Shown: positions 5,850 through 42,950, counted from the stretch's first letter. The stretch is DNA of 64,000 nucleotides from an uncultured Candidatus Rokubacteria bacterium (GCA_963734175.1 CAVTGC010000010.1:252976-316975), one strand, 5' to 3'. Notes: generated by a model not told the origin, from the sequence alone. Translations and numbers: made by a program.

Positions 5850-7350
5850 CGCTGGGGGTCAACTCGGCGGCGCTGATCGCTCTAGCAGCCCGTGGCGGAA
5901 GTCATTGCGATGAGCCAGTTGCGGCGAGCGAGAAGGATGAGATCCCGCCGCGAGCCGGAGAGCCCGGGACGCCAAGGCGCCTCGTCAGAGTCGGGCGGAG
6001 CGCGGCGAGGAGCGAAGACAGGGTCAGCCAGAGCAGGTCCGACGGCGGACGGCGGCCCTGAAGGCCGCGCGGCGTCCCGCGTCCGAAGACGCTGCCGCAT
6101 CAGGAGCCCGAGATTGAAGGCGCCCGCGTGGACGATCAGCCGCTTGAGGATGTTGGGATGCCCGCGCAAGTGGATCCGGCGCAGCCCGCCGGTGTCATAG
6201 ACGTGCGCAAACGTCCGTTCGACGTACTCGCCGCGCCGCCGCATCAACCGCTTCCCGCGGGGGCCACCGACCCGGCGGCGATTGCCATAGACGGGTTGCT
6301 GGGCTTCCGGCTCCTTGGTCCAGCACCGGCGGCCGCGATCGGGCTCGGCGAGGTAGGCGCGGAGGCCGAGGGCCCGGAGGGTCAGCAGGGTGTCGTTGCT
6401 GTGGTAGCCCCGATCCCCGACGAGCGCCGTCGGGACGGTCGCCTGCACGGCCGCCAGCTGTTCGGCGGCCGTCAGCGTCGTCGCGAGCAGACTCGTCGTG
6501 TCGCCGACGTCCGCCCCGTGCAGGGTCACGGCGACCAGCGCGCCCGTCTCCAGATCGACGGCGTGCTCCACTTTGTGGGCGAGGTGCGTCCGGCCATCCT
6601 TCATCTGCGTGACCTTGGCATCGGGGTCCGACGGATTCACCCATTCGGCGTTGGACGTCCGCTTCTGGCGCCGACGGTCGAGACGGGCCAGCGCCTCGCG
6701 GCTCGGCGTCTTGAGGCCCGAGGCCGTCGCCAGCCGCGTGAGGAACTTCTGGTAGCTCTCTCCCGTGTCCCGCCGCACGATGCTCCGCATCGCGGCGTTG
6801 GCCTCGAGCGTGGTCGCATCCACGGCGAGCGTCTGGCCCCGGAGCAGGTGGGCCTCGACCAGGCGCTCCTGCACCCACGTGAACACGGCCTGATGCGCCT
6901 CGACGTCGATCAGGCGTCGGGTGCGCGAGATCGTCGAATGATCGGGCGCCGCCTCGTCGAGCCCCAAGCCCAGGAACTGGCGCACCGCCAGCGAGTCCGC
7001 CGCCCGCCAGGCGATCCCGCGCTCCGAGTCGAGGCCTTCGAAGTAGCCGATCAGCAACAAGCGGAAGTAGCGGCCCGGGGCGAGGCTGGGCCGGCCCATG
7101 ACCGGCGCGTAGAACGGCCGACATTGGTCCTCGACGAATCGGTCGAAGCCCGCGGCGTCGAGGATCTCATTCAGCCGCAGGTAGAACGGGTGGCCCGGCG
7201 ACACCGGCAGCTCGGTCGTGGGAATCCACAACGGCGGCTTGCTCGCTCTTGCGTTTGCCCATCGCCATGGCCCGCAGTGTACGATCTGGCGCGCCCGTGG
7301 CGATGTCCTTTCACCGACTTTCACCACGGGCTGCTAGGCCGTGATTGCCG
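5850..7350 (-). mobile_element. IS5/IS1182-family insertion sequence. Ends not mapped.
   Basis: A single transposase gene. The terminal inverted repeats could not be identified by eye. Confidence 0.4.
5882..7327 (-). CDS. IS5/IS1182-family DDE transposase, 481 aa
   Basis: The N-terminal region …LPVSPGHPFYLRLNEILDAAGF…GRPSLAPGRYFRLLLIGYFEGLDSERGIAWRAADSLAVRQFLGL…DHSTISRTRRLI is the DUF772/transposase N-domain signature of IS5/IS1182. It is followed by a DDE_Tnp_1 core. The 502-aa + strand ORF 6128..7636 is its antisense shadow. Confidence 0.8.
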   Translation of the reverse strand: MVKVGERTSPRARQIVHCGPWRWANARASKPPLWIPTTELPVSPGHPFYLRLNEILDAAGFDRFVEDQCRPFYAPVMGRPSLAPGRYFRLLLIGYFEGLDSERGIAWRAADSLAVRQFLGLGLDEAAPDHSTISRTRRLIDVEAHQAVFTWVQERLVEAHLLRGQTLAVDATTLEANAAMRSIVRRDTGESYQKFLTRLATASGLKTPSREALARLDRRRQKRTSNAEWVNPSDPDAKVTQMKDGRTHLAHKVEHAVDLETGALVAVTLHGADVGDTTSLLATTLTAAEQLAAVQATVPTALVGDRGYHSNDTLLTLRALGLRAYLAEPDRGRRCWTKEPEAQQPVYGNRRRVGGPRGKRLMRRRGEYVERTFAHVYDTGGLRRIHLRGHPNILKRLIVHAGAFNLGLLMRQRLRTRDAARPSGPPSAVGPALADPVFAPRRAPPDSDEAPWRPGLSGSRRDLILLARRNWLIAMTSATGC

Positions 7351-7634
7351 TCCGGCCATAGGTTCATGCACCTGGGATGGAGGAATACCTTCACCCCGGC
7401 CGTCAGCAGGAGTTCGACTTCGGTATCTCCGATCTCGATGGCGGAACTACAAGCCGCGCACTTGTGCGTCTCGCGGCACTGCCCGCCCAAGATGCGGGTC
7501 GGCCGGACTCTTGGCAGAACGCCACCTTCAACGAGGGTGCGGAGCCGTTCGCGCACGCTGGCGTCACTCGGCAGCGTGTCGGCACTCCCTCGGATCAAAG
7601 GCAGGCCAAGGCGGATCACGTCCGCAAATGCCAT
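7311..7634 (-). CDS. Small C-terminal zinc-ribbon protein, sub-family B
   Basis: …ERLRTLVEGGVLPRVRPTRILGGQCRETHKCAACSSAIEIGDTEVELLLTAGVKVFLHPRCMNLWPDG. It aligns with 38800..39231 (…ERLRGLVQRGVLPLTRPARVWAGPCRETHACIACGTIIGMGEMEFDVVLASAIKVFFHPKCLNLWPDAG). Confidence 0.5.
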   Translation of the reverse strand: MAFADVIRLGLPLIRGSADTLPSDASVRERLRTLVEGGVLPRVRPTRILGGQCRETHKCAACSSAIEIGDTEVELLLTAGVKVFLHPRCMNLWPDGNHGLAARGESR

Positions 7635-7785
7635 GAACGCGTTGCTGCGCTCACGGATAGCTAGGATGCGGCCTTGACGTGCGGCGCTGGCGGCGATGCG
7701 GGCAGCGGTTCTCTCAACTCACTCGGCGACGGCCATGCTCATGGGACGACCCTCCGTCAGACCGGGGAGCGTAGCACAGGTGAGG

Positions 7786-8067
7786 TCATGGCGCCTGCCG
7801 CCGGATCTCGATCCGCACGTGGGCCGGCCAGATCATGTCGCGCTCGGTATCGGGAATCCCGGGGCGCCGGATCCGGGCGGGCAGGCTCTTGCCGCCCTGG
7901 AACACCGTGGGGTGGGTCACAACCTCCCATTCGAGGCCCGCCTCGGTGAGCCGGTCGCCGACCTGGACTGCCATGGGCAGGACTGTGCGCGTGCCGTCGG
8001 CGGCCGCCGGCGTCGGGCCCGGCGTCGAGGCTGGTCGCTTCAGACGACGGGCTGGCCGATCAATCAC
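7786..8067 (-). CDS. Hypothetical protein
   Basis: ORF only. Competes with the + strand ORF 7696..8250. Confidence 0.2.
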   Translation of the reverse strand: MIDRPARRLKRPASTPGPTPAAADGTRTVLPMAVQVGDRLTEAGLEWEVVTHPTVFQGGKSLPARIRRPGIPDTERDMIWPAHVRIEIRRQAP

Positions 8068-8291
8068 CGACGAGGAACCAGAGGGCGCTGGACGCTACGA
8101 TCACGAGCGCCGCCGGGAGGAGCCACTTGGTCACGGCGTCTAGCAGCACCACGCCGCAACGCCGGCGGCCTGGGTCAGGAACGCCTCGAGGATCTTGCGC
8201 ATGGGCGGGAGGGTAACGAGGGTCAGAGCAGGCGTCAACGTCGCGTGTAGCCGACAGATCCACCACCCGCCGCGTCCGAGTCGGCGGCCCC

Positions 8292-8822
8292 CTACGCTGT
8301 GCGGGCGGCGATGAGGAGGGCAGCGACCCCTGCCACGCCAACGACGATCGGAAAGGCAAAGTCCAGTACTGCACGCACGACGACCACCGGGCCGACGGCG
8401 CCACGGTACCGGAACCGCTCTAGCCTGAAGATCTCGGGATCGTTTTTATCGAAGTCGTCCTCGCCAAGTCCCATCGCAACCATGCGCATCGCCTCGTCGT
8501 GCGTCTCTCGGGCGAGTTTCTGCATGGCCAGGTGATATTCCCATCGCCACGCCAGGGCGTCGGTCGCCGCATACGCGACAAAGGCCGAGAGGAAGTACAC
8601 CACTACGCTGGCCATCAACCACAGCAGAGCCCCGCGGCGTCCGGGCGTGAGGGTGATGCCGAAGTTCTCGATCTTCTCCGGGACAAACCCGGTCAGTGCT
8701 ACGGCCAGAGCGACGGTGCTGACACCAAGCAGCGCTCGCCGCTCCTTCCTTGTGGTCTCCGTGAGCGGGTCACGAAGAAGCACCCCGCCGCGCTCGCGTA
8801 GATCGTCGTCGAGCTCGCTCAT
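8292..8822 (-). CDS. Hypothetical integral membrane protein, 176 aa
   Basis: Several hydrophobic stretches (LLGVSTVALAVALTGFV, ALLWLMASVVVYFLSAFVAYAA, VVVVRAVLDFAFPIVVGVAGVAALLIA). Confidence 0.5.
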   Translation of the reverse strand: MSELDDDLRERGGVLLRDPLTETTRKERRALLGVSTVALAVALTGFVPEKIENFGITLTPGRRGALLWLMASVVVYFLSAFVAYAATDALAWRWEYHLAMQKLARETHDEAMRMVAMGLGEDDFDKNDPEIFRLERFRYRGAVGPVVVVRAVLDFAFPIVVGVAGVAALLIAARTA

Positions 8823-8836
8823 GCCTCGTCGAGATA

Positions 8837-9292
8837 ATGAAAAGATGCGCCGGCAAGGCCATCAAACATCACAGTTCGAGGTTACTGCGTGCGAACTGGT
8901 CCGCCGCCTCTGGTCGCACTACAGATTCCAGATCCGCCGCCCACGTGCGTGGATGGCTCGACATCGAAGTGACGACCGATCAGCGCCGCCGTAACCTCGT
9001 CGCTGCCCTCGGCTTCCTCCAGCTCAAACCGATCGAGCCGGAGCTGCAGATGCTGCATCGAGCTTTCGACAATTGGCGCGGCATTGGGGTGCTGGCCGTT
9101 GGCCTCCATCGTGTCGGCTATGACCTGGCGCTGATCCGAGACGCGGACGAGGGGTGGAGCGCCACGTTCTACATCACGGGCCGCATGCACTCGATCGTCG
9201 GTGGCTGGGCCAACGATCCGAAGCCCTGGCGAGCTGTCCAGCGGGCCGGGTGGGACGCGGTGAAGCATGCCGAGCGGTTTCTCGGATCGTGA
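8837..9292 (+). CDS. Member 2 of the '[12 protein letters not shown]' family
   Basis: …[89 protein letters not shown]…. Confidence 0.55.
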   Translation: MKRCAGKAIKHHSSRLLRANWSAASGRTTDSRSAAHVRGWLDIEVTTDQRRRNLVAALGFLQLKPIEPELQMLHRAFDNWRGIGVLAVGLHRVGYDLALIRDADEGWSATFYITGRMHSIVGGWANDPKPWRAVQRAGWDAVKHAERFLGS

Positions 9293-9917
9293 GGGCGGCG
9301 CTTCCGAAATACACCCCGATGCATCCCACGCAGGTTCGGGAGCCGTTCCACCTGCTGCCTGGATCTATGAGGAGAAAGTCGACGGCTGGCGCATCCTCGC
9401 TTACAAGGACGGACCCAGCGTCCGCCTCCTGAGCCGTAACGTTGTCGACCACTCGCGCAGGTTCCGCGAGATCGTTGCTGCGGTCGCGGCGTTCGCAGAG
9501 CCCACCCTCGTGCTCGATGGCGAAGTCGCCATCTTCGATCAGGCGATGCGGTCGCGGTTCGATCTGCTCCGGGAATCCGATCCCAGCATCATCGCGACGC
9601 CGCCGATCTACATGGCCTTCGGCGTGCTCTATCGCGCGGGCCGGGACCTTAGCCTGTCGCCCCTTCGTGAACGGCGCCCGTGTCTGGAGGAGATCGTGGC
9701 CGGGCACGACCTCGTGTTACCAGCACGCCGCCTGGCCGCCAACGGGCTGGAGGCGTGGGCCCAGGTGCTTGAGCGCGGCTACGAGGGGTACGTCGGGAAG
9801 GATGAGACGAGCCAGTACCCCGGCGGCAAGACGACGTCATGGCTCAAGGTGAAAGTGCCGGGGTGGACCGACGCCGAGGATCGTTGGAAGCGCGTGCGGA
9901 TCAGCGGCAATAAATGA
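9267..9917 (+). CDS. ATP-dependent DNA ligase adenylation-domain protein. It is truncated, with no OB-fold and a short N-terminus.
   Basis: KxDG motif I (EEKVDGWR), then …LDGEV…, …EGYVGKDETSQYPGGKTTSWLKVK, which are the ligase motifs. It stops about 25 aa after WLKVK. It overlaps the upstream gene by 26 nt. Confidence 0.6.
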   Translation: MPSGFSDREGGASEIHPDASHAGSGAVPPAAWIYEEKVDGWRILAYKDGPSVRLLSRNVVDHSRRFREIVAAVAAFAEPTLVLDGEVAIFDQAMRSRFDLLRESDPSIIATPPIYMAFGVLYRAGRDLSLSPLRERRPCLEEIVAGHDLVLPARRLAANGLEAWAQVLERGYEGYVGKDETSQYPGGKTTSWLKVKVPGWTDAEDRWKRVRISGNK

Positions 9918-9966
9918 CTAGGCGGCCACTTTCTCGCCAAGACCCGGCAATCGCTACTACGGACCG

Positions 9967-10200
9967 GTGACATATCCGGCGAAGAATCAACAGGACGTCG
10001 AGATCCTGTGGCGCGCGCCTACGCGGGAGTACGTTGTCATTGCTGATTTTCAGTCCAGAGGAGAAACGCCCGAGGCGATGCGGGCGAAGGCTGCGAAGAT
10101 CGGCGCGGACGCGGTCATCGTATCGATCCTCGGTGGCCACTATTCTCGTAGTGAGGAATGGGCAGCTGCCGGGAGCCGGGCACCCTCCCCTCCGGACTAG
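9967..10200 (+). CDS. Hypothetical small protein
   Basis: ORF only (MTYPAKNQQDVEILWRAPTREYVVIADFQSRGETPEAMRAKAAKIGADAVIVSILGG…). Confidence 0.25.
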   Translation: MTYPAKNQQDVEILWRAPTREYVVIADFQSRGETPEAMRAKAAKIGADAVIVSILGGHYSRSEEWAAAGSRAPSPPD

Positions 10201-10474: not shown

Positions 10475-10620
10475 TCAGGCGCTCGGCTGCGTGCCGGTCC
10501 GCGCCAGGGATTGCACTGTGTTGCAGAGTACGGTCGGACCGATAGGCTTGCGCAGGTAGGCGTCGAACCCCACCTCCTCGACCCCTTGTGGCGTCATACA
10601 CCGCGCCTGCCACCGGTCGG
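10475..10620 (-). pseudogene. C-terminal fragment of a receiver (REC) domain
   Basis: …[24 protein letters not shown] matches the C-terminus of the intact receiver gene 14429..14827 ([24 protein letters not shown]). The upstream part of the ORF is unrelated. Confidence 0.4.
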
Positions 10621-10655
10621 GATCGCGTCGTAGGACCAGTGAATCCAGCTCAAGG

Positions 10656-10991
10656 TCAAACACCGGGGCCCCGCTTCGGCTCGTCCATCCGCGCAGACGG
10701 CCCGTCGGCGTCAACCGCGCAGGTGCGATGAAACAGTTCCCCGTGCGACCACTGAACAGTATCGTCCTTCTCGAACCGACGACCGCAGATACCACAAAGT
10801 TCAAGCCTGGATTCCACGACTGCCTCACCACATTTGAAGTCTAAAAAGACATAGCGAACGGAGTCAATGAATCGCAAGTATTGCGGCTTGAAAAAAACTA
10901 CCCGGGACGAACTCGTCAGCCAGTCGTCGTCAGCCGGTGGCCGAGCCCTCCACGCCCTCGCGCCCCGCCCGGGCTTCGTTCCAAGCCGCAT
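10656..10991 (-). CDS. Small Cys-rich zinc-ribbon-like protein (…LELCGICGRRFEKDDTVQWSHGELFHRTCAVDADG…)
   Basis: C-x2-C … H..C arrangement like the other zinc-ribbon families. It lies immediately upstream of the receiver fragment. Confidence 0.35.
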   Translation of the reverse strand: MRLGTKPGRGARAWRARPPADDDWLTSSSRVVFFKPQYLRFIDSVRYVFLDFKCGEAVVESRLELCGICGRRFEKDDTVQWSHGELFHRTCAVDADGPSARMDEPKRGPGV

Positions 10992-11303
10992 AGCACGGAC
11001 GGCCGATGGAAGTACACCGTCCGGCCGTCGCTGAAAAGTACTCGTACTCGACGCTTTCCGCGGGCCTATCGCAGGCGGCGCAAGGATGGGGTATTTGCGG
11101 CCCTCCTTGAGCGATCACTGTTGGGGCTCGCCGCGGCAGTAAACCAAACCGCAGCAGTATTCGGATTCGGGTGCCCAAACTGTTGCTCACAACAGTTTCT
11201 GTAGCTCCCGATTCTCAAGGCGTCAAATAGGTACGATCTAACCGCGCAGTGTAAAGCTCTGAATGTGCGAGCATAATGCTAATTGAGGCGTCGATTTGAC
11301 GAG

Positions 11304-11330
11304 TTGGCACTCGTCGTCTACAAGTGCTAA
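11304..11330 (+). promoter_or_regulatory. CIRCE-like inverted repeat (HrcA operator) upstream of hsp20
   Basis: The sequence ttggcactc-N9-aagtgctaa differs from the CIRCE consensus TTAGCACTC-N9-GAGTGCTAA at 2 positions. It sits about 220 nt upstream of the sHSP start codon. Confidence 0.55.
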
Positions 11331-11548
11331 ATAGAGAGACACACGTAGGGGGGGCGGGGGCTGAGGCGGGTAGCGACAGAGCACAAGCCACCGTCGGCGA
11401 TGCCGCCGGAAGATTTTTGAGGAGCGGGCACGATGCATGGTTGGAGCTCGCGCGATGCGCGAGCGACGGTCCCGGGCCTGTGACAAGGCCCGGGGCCGAA
11501 ATAAGCCAGCAAGGAGGCTGGCGAACTAAACAGCAAGGAGGGCGTGTC

Positions 11549-12013
11549 ATGGCACTCGAGCGTTGGCGCCCACTTGGGGCGTTCATGGAGCCCAGCCGGG
11601 ATATCCAGAGCGAGATGAACAGACTGTTTGACAGCTTCTTTGGTCGTCCGACAACCACGGGGATGGGAAACGCGGGAAGCCGAGTCTGGGCGCCGGTCGT
11701 CGACGTGTATGAGTCGAAGGATGATCTTCTCCTGAACTTCGAACTGCCGGGCGTGCGGGAGAAGGACGTATCGCTCTCGATTACCGGCGATATGCTCACA
11801 CTGAGAGGTGAGCGCCAGTTCCGTCAGGAGCTGAAGGACGACCACACTTACCACATCGAGCGTGTCTACGGGAGGTTTGAGCGCTCCGTCCAGCTGCCGA
11901 TGCCTGTTCAAGCGGATCGTGTGACGGCGACTTATCGCGATGGGGTGCTAGAAGTGAAGCTCCCGAAGGCAGATGAGGTCAAGTCGAAGGAAATCAAGAT
12001 CGACATTCTGTAA
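11549..12013 (+). CDS. Hsp20/alpha-crystallin family small heat-shock protein, 154 aa
   Basis: MALERWRPLGAFMEPSRDIQSEMNRLFDSFF…WAPVVDVYESKDDLLLNFELPGVREKDVSLSITGDMLTLRGER…YGRFERSVQLPMPVQADRVTATYRDGVLEVKLPK. AAGGAGG lies 8 nt upstream of the ATG. Confidence 0.9.
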   Translation: MALERWRPLGAFMEPSRDIQSEMNRLFDSFFGRPTTTGMGNAGSRVWAPVVDVYESKDDLLLNFELPGVREKDVSLSITGDMLTLRGERQFRQELKDDHTYHIERVYGRFERSVQLPMPVQADRVTATYRDGVLEVKLPKADEVKSKEIKIDIL

Positions 12014-12362
12014 GTCGGGACTCGAGCTCGGCGTATCTGTCATTGAACAGCGTGGCGAGGAGCCGTACCTAACTTCAATCATGAACATGGACGCCGAGAA
12101 CGACGAGGGACCGATCGCTCAGCTCTACCTGCGCGGGTTGATCTTCGCTTCGCCATTGTTGTGGAAAACGTCGTCACGCGTGGTGACCTGAAGCCCGGTC
12201 TCCGAGTCCAACTCTGCGTGCGCACCCAAGTCGCTGTTGCGGCGGGAGCTCGTGGGCACCGAGGTAGTTGCGCAGAGAATCGTTCAGCCCTCTCTGCCAA
12301 CATGAGTGAGACAGTGACCCCCTGGGAGTTTAGAGTCGAGGGCGAGGCAGGATCGGAGAGCG

Positions 12363-12761
12363 ATGAGCGCATTGGAGCAGGCCCTCGGTGGGCCGGCGAT
12401 CGAGGTGGTGGCGAAGGCGACACGGCGGCGGTTCACGTTGGAGTACAAGCGGAAGGTGGTCCGAGAGGCCGACGCCTGTAAGACACCGGGCGCGATCGGG
12501 GCGCTGCTGCGGCGGGAGGGACTGTACTCCTCGCACCTGACGACGTGGCGGGCGGCGCGGGAGCGGGGCGAGTTGGTCGGGGCGCCGAAGCAACGCGGGC
12601 CGGCGCGGCGGGTCGTCGATCCGCGGGACAAGAAACTGGCCGAGCAAGCGCGGGAGATCAGCCGGTGGCAGAAGCGTGCCGAGCGAGCTGAGGCGCTGGT
12701 GGCCCTGCAAAAACAAGTGGCGGCGTTGCTGGGAACGCCGTTGGTCGACGAGACCTCGTGA
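12363..12761 (+). CDS. IS3-family transposase OrfA (HTH)
   Basis: MSALEQALGGPAIEVVAKATRRRFTLEYKRKVVREADACKTPGAIGALLRREGLYSSHLTTWR… Its stop overlaps the orfB ATG (GTGATGG). Confidence 0.9.
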   Translation: MSALEQALGGPAIEVVAKATRRRFTLEYKRKVVREADACKTPGAIGALLRREGLYSSHLTTWRAARERGELVGAPKQRGPARRVVDPRDKKLAEQAREISRWQKRAERAEALVALQKQVAALLGTPLVDETS

Positions 12762-13768
12762 TGGCGACGGTCGCCCAGATCGGGCCACGGCTGGGCATCG
12801 CTCCCACGTGCGCGGCGCTCGGGCTGCCCCGCGCCACGTACTATCGTCGACGTCGGCCCGCGCGCGCCGCGCCACCGCGGCGGCGGTCGCCTCGGGCCCT
12901 CGGCGAGAGCGAACGCGCGGCCGTGCTCGAGCAGTTGCATACGCCGCGCTTCGTGGACCTGGCGCCGGGCGAGGTCTATGCCACCCTGCTCGACGAGGGC
13001 CGATATCTGTGTTCCGAGCGGACGATGTATCGCGTCCTGGCCGCGCACGCCGAGGTGCGGGAGCGGCGCGCTCAGCTCCGGCATCCTGTCTATGCTGCCC
13101 CGGAGCTGCTGGCCCGTCGCCCCAACGAGCTGTGGAGCTGGGACATCACCAAGCTTCTCGGGCCCGTGAAGTGGACCTACTTCTACCTCTACGTCATGCT
13201 CGACGTCTTCAGCCGGTACGTGGTCGGCTGGATGGTGGCTCATCGCGAGAGCGCGACCCTGGCTGAGCAGTTCATCCGCGAGACCTGTGCGCGCCAAGCC
13301 ATCGTGCGCGAGCAGCTCACGGTCCACGCCGATCGCGGGTCGGCGATGACCTCGAAGCCCGTCGCCCTGTTGCTCGCGGATCTCGGCGTCACCAAGACGC
13401 ATGGCCGGCCGCACGTGTCGAACGACAACCCGTTCTCCGAGGCCCAGTTCAAGACGCTGAAGTACCGCCCGGCCTTCCCGGGGCGCTTCGGGTCGATCCA
13501 GGACGCGCGGGCGCACTGCCACGTCTTCTTCCCCTGGTACAACACCGAGCACCATCACACCGGACTCGGCCTGTTGACGCCCGCCGACGTGCACCACGGT
13601 TTGGCCGAGCAGCGCATCGCGGTGCGCGCGACCGTGCTCGCCACGGCCTACACGGCGCATCCCGAGCGATTTTCTGCGGGCCTTCCGGTCCCGGCGGCGA
13701 TGCCGACCGAAGTCTGGATCAACCCCCCAACGCGCCGTGCGCTCGCGGAGGTGGCGCTCACTCACTAA
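12758..13768 (+). CDS. IS3-family transposase OrfB (rve integrase core, DDE)
   Basis: …WSWDITKLLGPVKWTYFYLYVMLDVFSRYVVGWMVAHRES…HADRGSAMTS…HGRPHVSNDNPFSEAQFKTLKYRP… The 493-aa minus-strand ORF 12284..13765 is its antisense shadow. Confidence 0.9.
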   Translation: MMATVAQIGPRLGIAPTCAALGLPRATYYRRRRPARAAPPRRRSPRALGESERAAVLEQLHTPRFVDLAPGEVYATLLDEGRYLCSERTMYRVLAAHAEVRERRAQLRHPVYAAPELLARRPNELWSWDITKLLGPVKWTYFYLYVMLDVFSRYVVGWMVAHRESATLAEQFIRETCARQAIVREQLTVHADRGSAMTSKPVALLLADLGVTKTHGRPHVSNDNPFSEAQFKTLKYRPAFPGRFGSIQDARAHCHVFFPWYNTEHHHTGLGLLTPADVHHGLAEQRIAVRATVLATAYTAHPERFSAGLPVPAAMPTEVWINPPTRRALAEVALTH

Positions 13769-13826
13769 ACTCGAGACCCGACTGTCTCATTCTTGTTGAC
13801 AGGCTCCGCAGTGCCACCATCCGCTC

Positions 13827-14222
13827 GTGATCGAATTGCCACCGGCCGACACCTTCGATCAGTTCCTAGCCCTCGCGGAGCTGGCCAGAGAGGTACGCCG
13901 GTCGGCTGAGTGGGCACGAGCGGGTCGTAGACGCTCGATCCACGGCGCGAGCGACATTGGGCAGACCGATATCGCCGGCCTCATCCAAGCCAAGCTCGCG
14001 GCTGGTCTGCTGCCTCGCGCAAGGCCAGAGAGGACGTGGGTCGGCTTTGGGTCAGGCAAGGCTTGCGACGCATGCGAGCAGTCGATCACGGGGCAGAACC
14101 GCGAGATCGAGTTCGATGACCAAGGCTTGGGCACGATCCGGCTTCATGTCCTCTGCCTGGCGATGTGGCAGATCGAACGGGTCAAGGAGACCCTTCACGG
14201 TAGCGGCGGCGCGGCGGCGTGA
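13827..14222 (+). CDS. Small C-terminal zinc-ribbon protein, sub-family A
   Basis: MIELPPADTFDQFLALAELAREVRRSAEWARAGRRRSIHGASDIGQTDIAGLIQAKLAAGLLPRARPERTWVGFGSGKACDACEQSITGQNREIEFDDQGLGTIRLHVLCLAMWQIERVK. It is about 70% identical to 42525..42950. The GTG start lies 18 bp after the IS3 right end. Confidence 0.55.
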   Translation: MIELPPADTFDQFLALAELAREVRRSAEWARAGRRRSIHGASDIGQTDIAGLIQAKLAAGLLPRARPERTWVGFGSGKACDACEQSITGQNREIEFDDQGLGTIRLHVLCLAMWQIERVKETLHGSGGAAA

Positions 14223-14428
14223 GGCAGTAGCCGGCAGTCAACGAGCAGCGATCAGACTGGCCGTGCGCACATCGAAGCCTGCCACCGCGAGGGGGCGCGC
14301 CATGCTGTAGCGCGCGTCAGGGCGGTCATCAACTACCAATACCAACACCGTGAGCCAGGTGCCAGGCATGGGACTCTCGGCATTGTAGAGCGAGCCGGTG
14401 GGGCGCGGCCAACCGCGTTCTCACCGGC

Positions 14429-14827
14429 ATGTGCATTGGGGCATCGTCATCCATATTGGTCGAAGATGACCCGGACGCCCTCGCCTTGTTCAGGGCGATC
14501 TTGGAGTACGAGGGGGCGCTGGTGATGTCGACCCCAGCGGCGCAGCCGGCGCTGGAGCTGTTGGGCCGCATCCGGCCCGATGTCCTGGTGTCCGACGTGC
14601 AGATGCCCGACCGGAACGGCGCCTGGCTGGTGGCCGAGGCCCGTCATCGTGGCCTGCTCCAGGGCGTCCCCGCCGTGGTTGTGACCGCAGCGGCCATGAC
14701 GCGGGAGCAGGTACACCGAGCCGGGTTCGACGCCTATCTGCGCAAGCCCGTCGAGCCGAAGCTGCTATGGCAGACGGTCTACTCATTGGCGCGTCCCGTG
14801 AGCCTAGCGCCCAGCCTCCGGAACTGA
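14429..14827 (+). CDS. Single-domain response regulator (REC)
   Basis: …[24 protein letters not shown]…[19 protein letters not shown]…[28 protein letters not shown]…. Confidence 0.8.
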
Positions 14828-29569: not shown

Positions 29570-29570
29570 C

Positions 29571-33806: not shown

Positions 33807-34440
33807 TCATCGTGCAGAAGCGTCCGGACGCGCTCCTGGTACCAGGGGGATCGAGTGTTCCTGACCACGCGCGTGCGGATGTGCAGTTTGCGGCCCAAAC
33901 GGCGCTTGCCAGGCATGTATGCGTACCGGGAACTCGTCGAGGCGGGCGGCCTTGCTTCCTTTGGGCGAACTACGCGGCCATGCACAGGCGTGCCGCCTAC
34001 TATGTGGACGCCGGCGTGTAGCTCGTGAACATGGCATCGACCTTCGCAATGACGAGTGCCCGCGCGAGAGCCCGAAACTGCTCAACCCGCCCCTCCAAGA
34101 AGCGGCGCTCGAAGATGACATTCCGCCCCTCGACCCACCCGGCGTCGCGAGACCCCTCGACGAAGCGTCCCTGGCCGGCGTGGCTCCAGGCACACCGTCG
34201 AGATGGCAGATTGGGGCCGGCTTCTTTGCTTGCGCATGTTGCACCGCAGCTTCGAGCGGCGCTGCGAGGTCGCCAGCCAGGGAGGTCAGCAGGATGCGGC
34301 GGCGATTCACTACTCGATCACCTGATCCGCCCGTGCTAGCAGCGAGGGCGGGATCGTCAGGCCGAGCGCCGTGGCGGTCTTTTGAGGTTGTTGACGAGTT
34401 CGAACGTCGTTGGTCCCTTGACTGGTAGATCGCCGGGTTT
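33807..34440 (-). pseudogene. Remnant of a PF04392 substrate-binding-protein tandem junction (3' end of one copy plus the Tat-signal 5' end of the next)
   Basis: 34322-34440 is a degraded copy of the …TIPPSLLARADQVIE* 3' end seen in the array at 47417-51355. It is followed directly by MNRRRILLTSLAG…. The rest of the gene is unrecognisable. Confidence 0.4.
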
Positions 34441-36769: not shown

Positions 36770-37276
36770 GCCAATTCAGCGTGCAACCCTTCGGCCAACG
36801 GCTGCTTCATGCTCAGGCCTGGGGCGTTCAGTCGTTTTACGCGGGCCACGATCTGCTAGAGGTGATGGCATGGAGCTTCATGGCTTTGCGAGGACCGGTC
36901 GCTGCTCGATAGGGCGTTCCGAGTCTGCCGAAGCAACGTCTCCTAGAAGTCGTCGAATCTGACGCGGAGTCAAACGCGTACGCGCGGAGCCTATCGAGGA
37001 GAGCTGTGAAAAATCGAAAGCTTTCTCTCGACAGCGATCCGGCTACTATGAGCACCTAGAGAAATGGCCGATGAGCGCCAATTCCTTCAGACCGGCAAGA
37101 ACGTCGTCGCACAATCGCAGATCAGGGGCGCAAGGTGGTGGAGGTTTCCTAGCGCAGCCACACTACGTCATCGTCACCGAGGCCGAGGACAAGGCCCGAA
37201 GCAAGTAAACCCCTAAGCTCTCTCACTTGCTTCTCAGGCTGTCCTCAAGCGGCGGTGCTCAAGGTCACCTCTAGCT

Positions 37277-38444
37277 TGTCCAGACTCGAAATGGTGTTGA
37301 CACTTCCGCGGTCCCAGAGTGGTGGTGAATGAGCTCATTGTGTGGCCACGCCCCAAACGAGCGCGGCCGGGGTACGACCGCGGACGCGATAGCCTTGGTG
37401 AGGCCGGTCGTGGTTGTAGTAGCGCATGAAGCCGTCGAGGGCTCGCTGCAGCGTCGCGCGACGCGTGAAATAGCGGCGACGGAAGACGACGCGCCAGAGT
37501 TCCTGGAGAATCGTGCCCTGCAGGCGTTCGACGAAGCCGTTGGTCCAGGCATGACGCGGTTTCGTGCGCGTATGGCGGAGGCGGAGCTCGCGGCAGGCCC
37601 CATCAAAGGCGCCCTTGAATTCCGGGCCACCATCGGTGAGCACGCGCCGCACCGGCCAGCCCGCGCGCTGGAAGTGCGGCACCACGACCTCGCGCAGGAA
37701 GCGGGCGGCGGCGGCCGCGTCGTGGGCGGGCAGCAGGCCGGCCAGCCCGTAAGAGGTCGCCGCGTCGCACGCGGTGATCTGCCACACCTTGCCCACGCCT
37801 TTGAGGTTGCCGATGTAGAAGGTGTCCAGACACACCAGCTGGCCCGGCTCCGTGGCCTCGACGTGCCGCGTGCGGCCGTGACGGGCCCGCCAGAGCTTCT
37901 CCCGGGTGCGGTCCGTGAGCAGCCCCGCCGTCCGGGCGGCCTGCTGCTCGAGCACCGTCAGGCGCGCTCGGCGCGTGGCCAAACCGACTCGGCGGAGCAG
38001 CCGCTGCACGGTGCTGGGCGCCAGGCGGATCTGCCAGGTGCGCGCCAGGTAGGCCGCCAGGCGGCGACACCCCCAGGTCGCGGCGCTGATCGCAATCCCC
38101 AGCACCAGCCGTTCCACCTCCGGCGGGGTCGCCACCGGCCGCCCCGCGCCGGCGCGCTGCCGCCGGGGATGAACCCCCTCGACGCCATAGCGTTCCAGCC
38201 GTTGGCGCCAGCGGTAAAACAGGGTCCGGGAGATGCCCAGCTCGCGGCAGACGGCGCTGACGTTGCCGAGCACCTGCGCCCGCTCGATGACGCGCAGGCG
38301 CATTCCGTGTACGCTCTCGTCGAGGGTCATCGGTCCGTCCTCCCACAGTGGTTCCCTTGGCGGGGTAAGCACTCTGGGAAAGATAGAGCCGATGGCCTTC
38401 TTGTTCGTTCACGGCAAGTGTCAACACTATTTCGAGTCCGGACA
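37277..38444 (-). mobile_element. IS481-family insertion sequence, copy A, 1168 bp
   Basis: Terminal inverted repeats TGTCCaGACTCGAAATgGTGTTGACAC… Flanked by the 8-bp direct repeat CTCTAGCT (37269-37276 and 38445-38452). Confidence 0.9.
37335..38372 (-). CDS. IS481-family transposase (HTH plus rve/DDE integrase core), 345 aa
   Basis: …LFYRWRQRLERYGVEGVHPRRQRAG…QLVCLDTFYIGNLKGVGKVWQITACDAATS…VLTDGGPEFKG…HTRTKPRHAWTNGFVERLQGTI…YNHDRPHQGY…. Confidence 0.9.
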   Translation of the reverse strand: MLTPPREPLWEDGPMTLDESVHGMRLRVIERAQVLGNVSAVCRELGISRTLFYRWRQRLERYGVEGVHPRRQRAGAGRPVATPPEVERLVLGIAISAATWGCRRLAAYLARTWQIRLAPSTVQRLLRRVGLATRRARLTVLEQQAARTAGLLTDRTREKLWRARHGRTRHVEATEPGQLVCLDTFYIGNLKGVGKVWQITACDAATSYGLAGLLPAHDAAAAARFLREVVVPHFQRAGWPVRRVLTDGGPEFKGAFDGACRELRLRHTRTKPRHAWTNGFVERLQGTILQELWRVVFRRRYFTRRATLQRALDGFMRYYNHDRPHQGYRVRGRTPAALVWGVATQ

Positions 38445-38534
38445 CTCTAGCTCGCATGATGCCCAGCTTTGCTGGTCCGAAGTGAGCGCCAGCCGGACCC
38501 AGCCGGATCATCATCATGGATGAGCAGGCGCGCA

Positions 38535-38834
38535 CTAGCCGACTCGTATAAACGTCTCATCGCACGCATGGCAGATCCAGATCCACTCCTCCGGGCTGCC
38601 CCCAGCCCCCGTGTGAGAAACATCACTAGACATGCAGTCGGAGTTCGGGCAGCGACTCTTCATGGTACGGCGCTGAGGCTTGTCCTGGTCCATCGGTTCC
38701 CCTATCACCGGCTGCCCTCTCTCCGCACCGACGCGGAGGTCGAAATTGTGGGTCATCGTCGTTTCGGCCTTCGGCTTCCTCCGCCGACCACCTCCGACGT
38801 TAGCTAGCCGCAGCGACTCCGTCCAGCCCTGCAT
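38535..38834 (-). CDS. Small 4-Cys zinc-ribbon-like protein (…SRCPNSDC…WIWICHACDETFIRVG)
   Basis: ORF only. It sits directly downstream of a sub-family B gene. Confidence 0.3.
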   Translation of the reverse strand: MQGWTESLRLANVGGGRRRKPKAETTMTHNFDLRVGAERGQPVIGEPMDQDKPQRRTMKSRCPNSDCMSSDVSHTGAGGSPEEWIWICHACDETFIRVG

Positions 38835-39231
38835 CGGGCCAGAGGTTCAGGCACTTGGGATGGAAGAACACCTTGATGGCGGACGCGAGGACGACGTCGA
38901 ACTCCATCTCGCCCATGCCAATGATCGTGCCGCAGGCAATGCAGGCGTGCGTCTCACGACAGGGACCGGCCCACACGCGCGCCGGCCGGGTTAGCGGAAG
39001 AACACCGCGCTGGACGAGCCCCCGAAGCCTTTCCAGGACCGCGGCTTTATTGGGAGGCGTCTCTCCACCGCCGCGGATCAAGCGTTGCCGAGTGAGGACG
39101 ACCTTGGTGAGCGCAAGCAGCCACTCGCTGCGGTCAAGGACGGAGAGACTGCGGCTGCAGTGGGCAAGGCTTCTGAGTCGTCGGGTAGCAGCTCGCCCGA
39201 CTCGTTCCTCGACTGAGGCGCTCTGGGTCAT
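38800..39231 (-). CDS. Small C-terminal zinc-ribbon protein, sub-family B
   Basis: Internal Met (MTQSASVEERVGRAATRRL…) of ORF 38800..39405. Its C-terminus aligns with 7311..7634. Confidence 0.5.
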   Translation of the reverse strand: MTQSASVEERVGRAATRRLRSLAHCSRSLSVLDRSEWLLALTKVVLTRQRLIRGGGETPPNKAAVLERLRGLVQRGVLPLTRPARVWAGPCRETHACIACGTIIGMGEMEFDVVLASAIKVFFHPKCLNLWPDAGLDGVAAAS

Positions 39232-39736
39232 GCGCCGATTCCTCCAGAGGCAACGCAGAGTAGCAAAAACGGCCGCGAGCGTAGGATCGTCTGCCCCCCT
39301 CCGGACGCCACACCGCTCTTCGCCGCCGCCGGCTCGACGCGCTGACGACCCCGGCTCCCCGACCTGGCGATCAAACCACTTCTTCGATCCGATCAGCCGC
39401 GACATCCGGTTCGAGCAGCCTGTTGAACGGAAGCGGCCAGGGCGGGAGGTGCGTCGGCGGCGTCAGCCTGAGAGGCTCGCGACTCGCCTTTCTGCAGTAA
39501 TGACGATGCTGGTGCCATGTCGCGCGATGCTGCCCGGATGCTGCGAGTATGCCCACGTCTCTGGCCCAGCAGTACCATGGCATCGCAGCCGCCATCTTAC
39601 GCGGTCAGCTATCCGGTGCGAGGTGGCGGTTCACTCTGACTCGTGAAACGCGATCCATGCGCCCTCTCTGCCAACATGAGTGAGACAGTGACCCCCTGGG
39701 AGTTTAGAGTCGAGGGCGAGGCAGGATCGGAGAGCG

Positions 39737-40135
39737 ATGAGCGCATTGGAGCAGGCCCTCGGTGGGCCGGCGATCGAGGTGGTGGCGAAGGCGACACGGC
39801 GGCGGTTCACGTTGGAGTACAAGCGGAAGGTGGTCCGAGAGGCCGACGCCTGTAAGACACCGGGCGCGATCGGGGCGCTGCTGCGGCGGGAGGGACTGTA
39901 CTCCTCGCACCTGACGACGTGGCGGGCGGCGCGGGAGCGGGGCGAGTTGGTCGGGGCGCCGAAGCAACGCGGGCCGGCGCGGCGGGTCGTCGATCCGCGG
40001 GACAAGAAACTGGCCGAGCAAGCGCGGGAGATCAGCCGGTGGCAGAAGCGTGCCGAGCGAGCTGAGGCGCTGGTGGCCCTGCAAAAACAAGTGGCGGCGT
40101 TGCTGGGAACGCCGTTGGTCGACGAGACCTCGTGA
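39737..40135 (+). CDS. IS3-family transposase OrfA
   Basis: Identical to 12363..12761. Confidence 0.9.
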   Translation: MSALEQALGGPAIEVVAKATRRRFTLEYKRKVVREADACKTPGAIGALLRREGLYSSHLTTWRAARERGELVGAPKQRGPARRVVDPRDKKLAEQAREISRWQKRAERAEALVALQKQVAALLGTPLVDETS

Positions 40136-41142
40136 TGGCGACGGTCGCCCAGATCGGGCCACGGCTGGGCATCGCTCCCACGTGCGCGGCGCTCGGGCTG
40201 CCCCGCGCCACGTACTATCGTCGACGTCGGCCCGCGCGCGCCGCGCCACCGCGGCGGCGGTCGCCTCGGGCCCTCGGCGAGAGCGAACGCGCGGCCGTGC
40301 TCGAGCAGTTGCATACGCCGCGCTTCGTGGACCTGGCGCCGGGCGAGGTCTATGCCACCCTGCTCGACGAGGGCCGATATCTGTGTTCCGAGCGGACGAT
40401 GTATCGCGTCCTGGCCGCGCACGCCGAGGTGCGGGAGCGGCGCGCTCAGCTCCGGCATCCTGTCTATGCTGCCCCGGAGCTGCTGGCCCGTCGCCCCAAC
40501 GAGCTGTGGAGCTGGGACATCACCAAGCTTCTCGGGCCCGTGAAGTGGACCTACTTCTACCTCTACGTCATGCTCGACGTCTTCAGCCGGTACGTGGTCG
40601 GCTGGATGGTGGCTCATCGCGAGAGCGCGACCCTGGCTGAGCAGTTCATCCGCGAGACCTGTGCGCGCCAAGCCATCGTGCGCGAGCAGCTCACGGTCCA
40701 CGCCGATCGCGGGTCGGCGATGACCTCGAAGCCCGTCGCCCTGTTGCTCGCGGATCTCGGCGTCACCAAGACGCATGGCCGGCCGCACGTGTCGAACGAC
40801 AACCCGTTCTCCGAGGCCCAGTTCAAGACGCTGAAGTACCGCCCGGCCTTCCCGGGGCGCTTCGGGTCGATCCAGGACGCGCGGGCGCACTGCCACGTCT
40901 TCTTCCCCTGGTACAACACCGAGCACCATCACACCGGACTCGGCCTGTTGACGCCCGCCGACGTGCACCACGGTTTGGCCGAGCAGCGCATCGCGGTGCG
41001 CGCGACCGTGCTCGCCACGGCCTACACGGCGCATCCCGAGCGATTTTCTGCGGGCCTTCCGGTCCCGGCGGCGATGCCGACCGAAGTCTGGATCAACCCC
41101 CCAACGCGCCGTGCGCTCGCGGAGGTGGCGCTCACTCACTAA
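40132..41142 (+). CDS. IS3-family transposase OrfB
   Basis: Identical to 12758..13768. Confidence 0.9.
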   Translation: MMATVAQIGPRLGIAPTCAALGLPRATYYRRRRPARAAPPRRRSPRALGESERAAVLEQLHTPRFVDLAPGEVYATLLDEGRYLCSERTMYRVLAAHAEVRERRAQLRHPVYAAPELLARRPNELWSWDITKLLGPVKWTYFYLYVMLDVFSRYVVGWMVAHRESATLAEQFIRETCARQAIVREQLTVHADRGSAMTSKPVALLLADLGVTKTHGRPHVSNDNPFSEAQFKTLKYRPAFPGRFGSIQDARAHCHVFFPWYNTEHHHTGLGLLTPADVHHGLAEQRIAVRATVLATAYTAHPERFSAGLPVPAAMPTEVWINPPTRRALAEVALTH

Positions 41143-41224
41143 ACTCGAGACCCGACTGTCTCATTCTTGTTGACAGGCTCCGCGCGCCTGAACCGACAAC
41201 TCCGCGTGGACTGAGTCGGCTACT

Positions 41225-41677
41225 TCACCAGCAGCAGGCGTGCTTCGAGCGAGCGGACCTACACCGCGCCTGCAGGCGGTCAGAGCCGCGTCGCAGGACC
41301 AGTGACGTGTGGTGCAGGCGGGCGCTACGCTGCCATGTCGACTCGATCAAGACCGCTGCACCGACACACTCGCCTTGCATCGGTGGCTTGAGTGAGCAGC
41401 GGAGATGGACACGGCCCTCCGCGCCATTCGCCGCCGTAGCGGCTCCCGGTCGCACGACCTCGCCGCATGCCGAGCAGAAGCGGTACGGCGCATACGAGGA
41501 CCAGTCGTCTTTGAGCTGACTCACGTACCGGTTGGTGAAGGGCAGGTACGGAAGGAGGATCTGATCGACATCGCGGGGGTCCAGGGGGCCAGACCAGCTC
41601 ACGAGCTTCCGGTTCTCGACCGCGACCGCCCAGACGTCGCCGGTGACGAGGTGTTGCCAGAAGCCGCGCTCGATCAT
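41225..41677 (-). CDS. Hypothetical protein with a zinc-ribbon-like motif (…RFCSACGEVVRPGAATAANGAEGRVHLRC…)
   Basis: N-terminus MIERGFWQHLVTGDVWAVAVENRKLVSWSGPLDPRDVDQILLPYLPFTNRYVSQLKDDWSSY…. It ends 41 bp from the IS3 right end. Confidence 0.35.
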   Translation of the reverse strand: MIERGFWQHLVTGDVWAVAVENRKLVSWSGPLDPRDVDQILLPYLPFTNRYVSQLKDDWSSYAPYRFCSACGEVVRPGAATAANGAEGRVHLRCSLKPPMQGECVGAAVLIESTWQRSARLHHTSLVLRRGSDRLQARCRSARSKHACCW

Positions 41678-41706
41678 CGTCGTCCTCCCACGGCAACGTC
41701 GGTCAG

Positions 41707-42132
41707 TTGGTCAGGCTACCACGTGGTTCAAGCCGACGCTCCAGTGAGGCCGCGTCCACGGAAGTGAGATGCCGGCGAGGCAGGAGCGGGTTCCAGGGCA
41801 AGTGTGGCCGGCATCCCGCCCCGCTGCTATCCTTTCAGGTGCCTCCCTCAGGGCCTCCGACAGGCGCATCAGGCGTCGGACCCTTCTGGTATCTGGCGTG
41901 GCCCTTCATCCCCCAGAGGGGCAAGCTGCCAAGCCGGCGCCCTGACCGGACCTGGGGCGGGCCAGGAGTCGGTGCCCCCTGCGCCGTCTGCGAACTACCC
42001 GTCACCCCGGATGAGATGGAGTTCGAGATCCAGTTCGCTCGCGACGGCGACAACCCAGGGTTGGACAAGTTCCACGTCCACATCCGCTGCTTCGCCGCGT
42101 GGGAGTTTGAGCGCCGGAGTGCCCAGACATGA
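41707..42132 (+). CDS. Small C-terminal zinc-ribbon protein related to sub-family A. The true start is probably internal.
   Basis: …GAPCAVCELPVTPDEMEFEIQFARDGDNPGLDKFHVHIRCFAAWEFERRS aligns with …GKACDACEQSITGQNREIEFDDQGLGTIRLHVLCLAMWQIERVK. Confidence 0.45.
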   Translation: MVRLPRGSSRRSSEAASTEVRCRRGRSGFQGKCGRHPAPLLSFQVPPSGPPTGASGVGPFWYLAWPFIPQRGKLPSRRPDRTWGGPGVGAPCAVCELPVTPDEMEFEIQFARDGDNPGLDKFHVHIRCFAAWEFERRSAQT

Positions 42133-42524
42133 ACGTCTTGGCCTTATCGAAACCCGGCCACCCCGACCTGGCGCTGGCGCATTGTCGACTACAACGGTGA
42201 AACGATAGAGGAGTCCTACACGGGGGTTCCCCACCATCGCGGCGGCGCTCGCAGATGGGAACGCGCATGTGCGGCAGAACGCCGCGCGTGAAGGCCCCCT
42301 CCTACTGCGTCGGAGCCGGTAGGATGACCTCCGACGAGCGAGCCCAGACGATTATCAGCCACTCCGATATCCTCTGCGAGACGAGCGGCGCGCTGATCGT
42401 GAGCAGCCAGGAACTGATCGAGAAGGCCGACCGACTGGTACTGGAGGCCGAGGCCCTCTGGTTGATCACTTGGCCTCGCCATCCGTGAAGTCCCACGATG
42501 CTCTCGGGCACCCGCCCGCGCGGA

Positions 42525-42950
42525 CTACGTCGCCGCGCCGCCGTTGCCCTTGAAAACTTGCTTGACGCGTTCGCTCTGCCACATCGCCAGGCATTGGGCA
42601 TGAAGCCGGATCGTGCCCAGGCCCGGGTCATCGAACTGGTACTCGCGGTCCTGTATCGTGACCGGCTGGTCGCAGGCATCGCACGCCTTGCCTGACCCGC
42701 AGCCGACCCACATCTTCTCGGGCCGGTCGCGCGGCAGCAGACCTGCAGTGAACTTGGCTTGGATGGTGCCAAGAAGATTGGTCTGGCCTATGTCGCTGGC
42801 ACCATGGATCGGGCGCCTACGACCGCCTCGTGACCACTCGGCCGACCGGCGCATATCCCTGGCGACGCGAACGAGCATCGGGGCTTGTCCGAAGATATCG
42901 GTCGGTGGCAAGTCGATCACGGGCCGCGATAGTGGCACCGCGCGACTCAA
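42525..42950 (-). CDS. Small C-terminal zinc-ribbon protein, sub-family A
   Basis: MSRAVPLSRPVIDLPPTDIFGQAPMLVRVARDMRRSAEWSRGGRRRPIHGASDIGQTNLLGTIQAKFTAGLLPRDRPEKMWVGCGSGKACDACDQPVTIQDREYQFDDPGLGTIRLHAQCLAMWQSERVK. Confidence 0.55.
   Translation of the reverse strand: MSRAVPLSRPVIDLPPTDIFGQAPMLVRVARDMRRSAEWSRGGRRRPIHGASDIGQTNLLGTIQAKFTAGLLPRDRPEKMWVGCGSGKACDACDQPVTIQDREYQFDDPGLGTIRLHAQCLAMWQSERVKQVFKGNGGAAT

Follow-up and report, generated by a model that had tools for sequence, protein, structure and literature searches.

The question raised by the window, that is, the whole stretch of 64,000 nucleotides from an uncultured Candidatus Rokubacteria bacterium that was analysed (GCA_963734175.1, CAVTGC010000010.1:252976-316975), is whether the small genes with a CxxC...HxxC pattern that lie scattered over it constitute one gene family and, if so, with what their products work. 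An initial annotation had listed eight such open reading frames (ORFs) as a family of C-terminal zinc-ribbon proteins, twice paired with receiver genes and repeatedly next to insertion sequence (IS) ends. Here we report that six ORFs of the window are true paralogues, that their domain is predicted to be a treble-clef Cys2-His-Cys zinc finger, and that the strongest and tightest association of the family, which the initial annotation had overlooked, is an operon with an extracytoplasmic function (ECF) sigma gene in other genomes; the link with receiver genes is real but facultative. We tentatively favour, at somewhat less than an even chance, the explanation that the family is a zinc-dependent protein-protein module, a partner or adaptor of transcription-signalling proteins.

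Members of the family

The six paralogues (Table 1) are hereafter called A1 and A2 (sub-family A), B1 and B2 (sub-family B), member C, and the 10930 copy. When the six-member profile was compared with the 954 stop-to-stop ORFs of the window, only those six matched (E <=1e-31), the next ORF having an E value of 0.063. To avoid circularity, each sub-family was dropped in turn from the profile before the search; the hidden Markov models (HMMs) obtained with one group left out recovered sub-family A with E values of 4.9e-14 and 1.8e-12, sub-family B with 2.3e-9 and 2.9e-9, and the single copies with 3.6e-13 (member C, 41707) and 9.1e-12 (the 10930 copy). The proposal of a recurrent family with a Cys/His/Trp signature was thus supported by the profile and leave-group-out statistics, and in a proper alignment the six sequences lined up with conserved Cys and Trp columns, the residues G, L, P, P, G, C, C, E, C, and W being invariant.

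All eight ORFs listed earlier do exist where they had been placed (those starting at 7311, 10656, 38535, 38800, 41225, and 42525 are on the minus strand). As for the statement that at least eight were members, five were upheld (7311, 13827, 38800, 41707, and 42525), three were wrong, and one (10930) had been overlooked; we count six because 10656, 38535, and 41225 failed in the profile search and in hhalign while 10930 scored. The ORF at 10656..10991 (minus strand; hhalign probability, 3%) runs out of frame over a decayed receiver gene and overlaps the 10930 copy in another frame; that at 38535..38834 (minus strand; 0.5%) has a C-x4-C...C-x2-C pattern and stops directly after CxxC, without H-x2-C; and that at 41225..41677 (minus strand; 11%) has only the spacing C-x2-C-x19-H-x2-C, without the GxLP block and without the Trp. 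These probabilities are no better than those of unrelated CCHC fingers. Weak Pfam zinc-ribbon matches were confined to the non-members 10656 and 38535, the 41225-41677 product had no match in Pfam, PHROGs, or PADLOC, and in an alignment of nine sequences (the earlier eight ORFs and 10930-11190) the first CxxC was the only feature common to all rows. Note that two ORFs with a CxxC...HxxC pattern but no detectable homology to the family lie near family genes, namely, 41225-41677 ('CSACGEVV...RVHLRC') and 3930-4106 on the plus strand of locus L141 ('CAFCNTPI...VAYHAGCWDR'); these could be either very remote relatives of the family or fingers of unrelated origin.

The family proteins of the window are ~85-140 aa long and have no recognisable fused domain; four copies look intact, one looks 5'-truncated, and one frameshifted. 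The predicted zinc ligands of A1 are C80, C83, H107, and C110, and its N-terminus is that of P0001 (MIELPPADTFDQ). A1 and A2 had been estimated to be about 70% identical, which agrees with the measured 68% over 131 aa (ratio of nonsynonymous to synonymous substitution rates (dN/dS), 0.41), and their regions form an inverted repeat (I3) with 80% nucleotide identity. The true start of A2 is likely the GTG of 'VIDLPP' at ~42920; in the public annotation the gene product (P0002, 117 aa) begins at an internal Met. The relatedness of B1 and B2 was also borne out (~50% identity over the domain; dN/dS, 0.22). At its stop codon, B1 adjoins or overlaps the beginning of the IS5-like transposase ORF, and B2, which is placed between an IS481-like copy and IS3 copy 2, lies in an ORF open up to 39405, the homologues P0008 and P0012 favouring a start near 39231 or later. 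Member C has the signature 'WGGPGVG...HVHIRCFAAWEFER'. Because its similarity to the subtype begins only at residue 15 (nucleotide 41914) and the N-terminal helix of the domain is absent in every reading frame, it is either a 5'-truncated copy or a copy with a foreign N-terminus; its orthologues are under strong purifying selection (dN/dS, 0.05-0.10). In the 10930 copy, a pair of compensating frameshifts replaces 'LLFSDGRTVYFHRP', by which the His ligand is lost in the open frame; read in another frame, this stretch gives 'LFSDGRTVYFHRP', identical to the homologue P0019. This copy is either a pseudogene in decay or an assembly error; similar frameshifts were found in several related loci from metagenome-assembled genomes (MAGs).

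Outside the window, a word-index search with the A1 protein found just three relatives, and it was a profile search of 1.84 billion representatives that revealed the family: 3,625 clusters (counted at 50% identity) at E <=1e-3 and 688 at E <=1e-10, with protein lengths of 81-288 aa (median, ~120 aa). For one subtype alone the count at 90% identity is 2,807 clusters or more; these are without exception named 'hypothetical protein' or nameless, and none of them has a precomputed Pfam domain. Scans of the members against Pfam, NCBIfam, PHROGs, and PADLOC gave no matching family, as the initial annotation had stated for named zinc fingers, and none of 122 members matched a Pfam family covering the domain. 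The family was not found in PLSDB plasmids or IMG/VR viral contigs, and literature searches yielded nothing relevant on bacterial PARP-like fingers or on small zinc proteins encoded upstream of ECF/ChrR operons. Across the 122 members (A1 numbering), C80, C83, and C110 are invariant, H107 is conserved in 98%, and G60, L62, P63, P67, G73, E93, H107, and W114 are conserved in at least 90%. Over the comparisons made, dN/dS was 0.05-0.41, indicating purifying selection.

The nearest relatives of the window genes are in Candidatus Rokubacteria/Methylomirabilota MAGs. For the analysis of gene order, 76 genome loci (set 1) were gathered with the subtype alignment (A4), since alignment A3 was too diverse for the search patterns; set 1 therefore covers the 41707 subtype only. 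Set 2 consisted of 72 metagenome loci, reduced to 30 non-redundant ones, so that 106 other non-redundant loci were available in total. By taxon, set 1 contains 55 loci from Rokubacteria/Methylomirabilota and 14 from Gammaproteobacteria (Steroidobacteraceae, Woeseiaceae, and Chromatiales), the remainder being from Acidobacteriota, Binatia, Chloroflexota, Gemmatimonadales, Verrucomicrobiia, and one unclassified bacterium. Several MAGs give three to five loci each, and clusters of paralogues as in the window are typical, because two to six domains are found in a span of ~12 kb in 15 of the 77 loci, counting the window. A tandem double domain is present in 20 of the 152 best family proteins. Apart from the receiver in P0100 and the extension described next, long family members have no fused domain. 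The long forms of sub-family A (P0023, P0027, P0039, P0044, and P0053; alignment A6) share a conserved C-terminal extension, 'GYC.(E/D)CLA ... RDAAQVLVARPGFRV.ER.CYTCG', in which a second C..C/C..C module seems to frame a helix-turn-helix-like segment; Pfam gave no match for this extension.

Predicted fold and nearest known domains

The conserved core (~75 residues) begins with an amphipathic N-terminal helix, followed by a G-x-L-P-x3-P-x3-W-x-G-x-G-x-G loop and a C-x2-C knuckle; its C-terminal half is made of a beta-hairpin with E-x-E and a helix that opens with H-x2-C and runs on as x3-W-x2-E-R. The AlphaFold2 model of the 76-residue domain, built from the family alignment (predicted local distance difference test (pLDDT), 96.3; predicted template modelling score (pTM), 0.85), runs from a helix (2-11) through a short strand and the C-x2-C knuckle to a beta-hairpin (45-60) and a helix (61-75), and in the domain and full-length models alike the H-x2-C pair is placed at the junction of the hairpin and the C-terminal helix, in the first turn of the latter. 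The name 'zinc ribbon' was given up because the H-x2-C pair starts this helix and does not form a second beta-hairpin knuckle; according to the models, the domain is a treble-clef Cys2-His-Cys zinc finger, and its members would bind zinc.

The top meaningful structural matches, obtained by two methods, were the PARP-1 fingers Zn1 and Zn2 and the DNA ligase III zinc finger. With these zf-PARP domains (the DNA ligase III alpha finger included) the family shares one zinc site of the form C-x2-C...H-x2-C with similar spacing (C-x2-C-x23-H-x2-C in A1 and C-x2-C-x29-H-x2-C in member C, both within the zf-PARP ligand set), the order of knuckle, beta-hairpin, and helix, and an aromatic residue after the last Cys ('CF.W'). 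However, there is no significant sequence similarity: the zf-PARP profile (PF00645) matched no window member in the Pfam search at E <=1 and none of 122 homologues, and hhalign probabilities of 28% against PARP-1 Zn1, 3% against Zn2, and 16% against the CRP1 LIM domain indicate pattern-level similarity only. The family also differs in that it has the N-terminal helix and the GxLP...P...W.G.G.G loop, which PARP fingers do not have, in that its domain is not basic, and in that it is a stand-alone bacterial protein and not the N-terminal module of a repair enzyme.

The first (CCHC) finger of LIM domains, RING, and C1 domains have the same treble-clef topology with 'C..C ... (F/W)H..CF.C/W', and among PDB sequences a LIM-domain protein gave the best match (7aih_Ax; E, 5e-4). 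Such treble-clef fingers are typically protein-protein interaction modules. They are eukaryotic and hold two zinc ions, whereas the family has one site; membership in the LIM family (PF00412) was rejected, there being one finger and no second Cys cluster, besides the low hhalign probability given above. The ZAS/zf-HC2 proteins (RsrA, ChrR, and RslA) are, like some members of the family, small cytoplasmic zinc proteins of ECF sigma operons with a possibly redox-sensitive Cys/His site, but their H-x3-C-x2-C motif lies in a helical bundle, whereas C-x2-C...H-x2-C of the family lies in a beta-hairpin and a helix; moreover, the family gene precedes the sigma gene, and the operons already carry a separate ZAS+cupin anti-sigma gene. 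Membership in ZAS (zf-HC2, PF13490) was likewise rejected, as Pfam gave no match and a separate gene of the same operons carries zf-HC2 and Cupin_7. Connector or adaptor proteins of single-domain response regulators (e.g., the ECF15 PhyR/NepR partner-switch) are also small and encoded beside receivers and sigma factors, and pass a phosphorylation signal on through protein-protein contacts. The family has no sequence or fold kinship with them, and its putative interaction is inferred from gene order and rare fusions. In sum, the domain resembles a single treble-clef CCHC finger, the PARP type being the nearest structure, and fits none of the families compared; the family is new, its fold class is known, and no new principle is involved.

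ECF sigma operon and receiver genes beside the family genes

Among the neighbours of set 1 (n = 150), a bulk Pfam scan found 14 ECF sigma, 8 REC, 5 GntR, 4 Crp, and 3 Rrf2 domains. In 15 of the 76 loci, the family gene is followed on the same strand by an ECF sigma gene (~218 aa) and a gene for a ~193-aa anti-sigma factor, with gaps of 0-80 bp or overlaps, and of the 17 ECF genes in all loci, 15 sit directly in this operon position (2.3 expected). The third gene has zf-HC2 and Cupin_7, that is, the ChrR architecture, with scores below the cut-offs of TIGR02451 and NF051881, and the best NCBIfam match of the sigma factor is of the SigK type, below the curated cut-off. Since the curated cut-offs for ECF11 sigma-E/ChrR were not reached, these partners are termed here just ECF sigma with ChrR-like anti-sigma. 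An ECF-type promoter, AATCC-N12-17-T(T/G)G(A/T/G)CGT(T/C), was counted 17 times over 1.13 Mb; in 14 cases it lies less than 100 bp upstream of a family gene on the same strand. In short it can be written AATCC-N-TTGTCGTT, and for the three-gene operons AATCC-N12-17-TTG(T/A)CGT(T/C). It follows that the sigma operon starts with the family gene. The family proteins of the operons, seen in Steroidobacteraceae, other Gammaproteobacteria, and a few Rokubacteria, are longer and share the C-terminal tail LP.A...G(M/I)(M/I)P..ER....RGP. The main text of the ECF reclassification paper makes no mention of such an extra operon component (PMC7826278).

As to the receivers, the gene reported downstream of A1 is real. 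Its product scores 64.4 bits against a PF00072 cut-off of 30.2, with 'EDD', 'VSD', 'VTA', and 'RKP' all present, that is, with the acidic pocket, the phospho-acceptor Asp, the Thr, and the Lys kept; the start may be at 14456 instead of 14429. The receiver fragment that had been put at 10475..10620 is real as well (residues 87-122, at 10499-10606), but its upstream partner is the 10930 copy and not the ORF at 10656. It lies downstream of the 10930 copy as a second, decayed pair of family gene and receiver, inverted relative to 13827/14429. The two pairs (10475-14827) are arranged in inverted orientation around an Hsp20 gene at 11549-12013 (P0391, of which the exact sequence, as well as that of P0002, is on the public NCBI/ENA record) and IS3 copy 1. 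The arrangement resembles an old inverted duplication, one arm of which has decayed. A promoter/terminator scan around 13827-14827 gave nothing informative.

In other genomes, locus L022 has four family genes alternating with three single-domain receiver genes on one strand, and co-oriented adjacency is also seen in L019, L034, L073, L092/L149, and L139-141, as well as twice in the window. The adjacent receivers are of at least four different types. The only close orthologue of the window receiver in the sample (63% identity) adjoins a family gene in L139-141, where the order is the reverse of that in the window and the family gene is of a different sub-family. Of the 21 single-domain receiver genes within the loci, 8 are same-strand neighbours of a family gene within 300 bp (3.0 expected; P ~0.004), and REC is the most frequent domain among the set 2 neighbours (5 of 71). 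Fusions of the family domain with a receiver are rare and form four clusters (P0100, P0272, P0273, and P0274), the fused receiver lacking the phospho-acceptor Asp ('VVGYR'); a fifth candidate, L084, was a frameshifted ORF and was excluded from the count. Note that the same clade of pseudo-receivers (Asp57 to Gly, 'VVGYR') is fused to a different small Cys module, 'YLRCPQCQRTHLWTKAMAWLEE', in P0322, P0325, and P0388, which suggests interchangeable zinc modules on one receiver type. The functional link to two-component signalling that the initial annotation had suggested is thus partly supported: adjacency recurs and fusions exist, but the pairing is facultative and is found in ~10% of the loci.

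Table 1. Family genes, receiver genes, and other features in the window and in the loci used for comparison
Feature	Position	Strand	Basis or remark
B1, family member, 107 aa	7311..7634	-	alignment, profile, leave-group-out HMM
10930 copy, degenerate sixth member	10930..11190	-	alignment, profile, leave-group-out HMM
A1, family member, 131 aa, GTG start, looks intact	13827..14222	+	alignment, profile, AlphaFold2 model
B2, family member	38800..39231	-	alignment, profile, leave-group-out HMM
Member C, most populous subtype	41914..42132 (homologous part; ORF open from 41707)	+	leave-group-out HMM
A2, family member	42525..42950	-	alignment, leave-group-out HMM, inverted repeat I3
Stand-alone receiver (REC) gene	14429..14827	+	PF00072, E 1.3e-17; 206 nt downstream of A1, same strand
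Receiver remnant, residues 87-122 only	10499..10606	-	tblastn, 58% identity to intact receiver, E 1.7e-8; inverted repeat I4
IS3-family copy 1, 1523 bp	12287..13809	+	100% identical to copy 2
IS3-family copy 2	39661..41183	+	100% identical to copy 1
IS481-like element (helix-turn-helix and rve), three copies	37266-38465, 44805-46004, 59806-60985		98-100% identical
IS5-like transposase	5882-7327
Short ATP-dependent DNA ligase, 216 aa	9267..9917	+	nucleotidyl-transferase domain only (motifs I-V), no OB domain
Ligase or fragment, other loci	L093 1147-1617, L095 1221-1889, L097 985-1653, L092 807-992, L086, L088/89
Three-gene ECF operon, other loci	L044, L046, L049-L052, L054, L055, L058, L060, L065, L066, L024, L030, L075		e.g., L054 5875-7488
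Pfam-less small proteins	window 7786-8067(-), 8837-9292(+); L095 93-380; L141 5285-5659, 2997-3299; L086 1811-2107; L088 4679-4978

Several other features were noted in passing. Three types of small proteins without Pfam matches recur beside family genes (motifs 'PM.IQIGDRF..EWEVV', 'EPEL..LHR.FD.W.G.G', and 'DE.KLRLVREFL.REFR'; Table 1). On the minus strand of the window, at 47417-51454, there are four tandem paralogous genes, ~990 bp apart and encoding 320-360 aa (with a fragment at 34228-34381), which resemble uncharacterised ABC-type substrate-binding proteins (PDB 3lft and 3lkv; E ~1e-27); directly upstream of them, on the same strand, are a receiver gene (51451-51831) and a histidine kinase gene (51821-54325), the latter encoding 834 aa and containing internal 558-nt repeats. 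At 992-1263, a 136-nt unit is perfectly duplicated in tandem (100% identity between the two copies).

Possible role of the family

The explanation favoured here, a small adaptor of signalling proteins, is based on the treble-clef fold class, on the neutral charge with a conserved acidic and aromatic surface, and on the gene order, the promoter, and the fusions. With a median pI of 6.8 and a net charge of 0, the domain is nearly neutral, and its surface positions E-x-E and W-x2-E-R are conserved; protein binding fits this better than DNA binding. In such a mechanism, the zinc finger would be a protein-protein docking module and the protein a small partner that contacts receivers or sigma/anti-sigma factors physically and has a regulatory role. 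In Rokubacteria-like genomes it may serve as, or link to, the output of stand-alone receivers that have no output domain of their own; in Steroidobacteraceae and others, the longer version encoded by the first gene would modulate an autoregulated ECF sigma/ChrR-like anti-sigma switch.

Several observations weigh against this explanation. In ~75% of the loci, neither a receiver gene nor an ECF sigma gene lies beside the family gene, and no ECF-type promoter was found upstream of the window copies or of the loci without an ECF gene. The enrichment of receivers is modest and its cases are not independent (three are from L022 and two from the window), and receivers are common in these genomes (3.6% of the genes in the loci; six in the window). 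None of the three stand-alone orthologues of the fused pseudo-receiver has a family gene nearby. The closest solved structures, the PARP-type fingers, bind DNA and not proteins. Moreover, the genes in the loci were called with a home-made codon-usage caller, and many MAG loci are from frameshifted assemblies.

One alternative, which we consider unlikely, is that the domain binds nucleic acids as a bacterial equivalent of the PARP and DNA ligase III fingers, senses DNA nicks or breaks, and works in trans with the short ligase encoded nearby. Besides the structural matches mentioned above, the common ligand pattern (C-x2-C-x23-30-H-x2-C) and the resemblance of 'H..CF..W' to 'HFSCFW' of PARP are in favour of it, and so is the finding that the ~220-aa ligase or its remnants lie no more than ~1 kb from a family gene, both in the window and in about six other non-redundant loci (L086, L088/89, L092, L093, and L095/97). 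However, these ligase genes are mostly convergent with the family genes and not operonic, several of them are fragments, no ligase association was seen in the 76 genome loci of the main subtype, and the conserved surface of the domain is acidic or aromatic, not basic.

It is similarly improbable, although compatible with the adaptor model, that the family acts as a thiol/zinc redox switch, in which oxidants would free zinc from the Cys3-His site so that the protein would be a sensor or a sacrificial buffer. The three Cys residues are invariant, stress genes (Hsp20, DUF6328, and CsbD) lie near family genes, and the family gene is predicted to be co-transcribed with genes for an ECF sigma that best matches the SigK type and a ZAS+cupin, ChrR-like anti-sigma; such sigma/anti-sigma groups are redox-responsive according to published work (PMC7826278). 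Against this, structural zinc sites built from these ligands are as a rule redox-inert, the family has no additional conserved Cys, and oxidative-stress genes are absent from most loci.

That the genes are cargo or accessory genes of an IS or another mobile element, which would explain their clusters at IS ends, is very improbable. Four window copies do lie within 1.5 kb of an IS end, and the spacing that had been described for A1, a start 18 bp after IS3 copy 1, was confirmed (IS end at 13809, GTG at 13827, 17 nt between them), although the members around IS3 copy 2 number three and not five. However, the family genes are outside the exact IS3 boundaries, they had no matches in plasmids, viral contigs, PHROGs, or PADLOC, and transposase or integrase genes are rare among the 221 neighbours in the 106 other loci (one 'rve' in set 2 and none in the top 25 of set 1), so that the proximity to IS ends is local to this IS-rich region and not a trait of the family. 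Finally, the notion that CxxC...HxxC arises by chance in spurious ORFs of a GC-rich genome, which holds for three of the eight ORFs listed earlier and may be thought of for short genes with low coding scores, is refuted for the six members by the existence of thousands of homologues, the leave-group-out E values (1e-9 to 1e-14), the AlphaFold2 pLDDT of 96, and a dN/dS well below 1.

Returning to the adaptor explanation, one may go further and suppose an unrecognised class of signalling adaptor, which would be a trans-acting output or connector of orphan receivers and a third component of ECF switches, and which would have expanded into multi-copy arrays in Rokubacteria, one small fold wiring many pathways; this extension is doubtful, but it is a possibility that we would keep in view. 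Few bacterial signalling proteins are as common as single-domain response regulators, most of which have no assigned downstream partner. The family described here, which is encoded beside them, is occasionally fused to a receiver, and opens an ECF operon elsewhere, is a concrete candidate for such a partner. Furthermore, soil metagenomes contain thousands of its members, for which neither Pfam nor NCBIfam has an entry, and its definition would clear 'hypothetical proteins' in Rokubacteria, Steroidobacteraceae, and their relatives.

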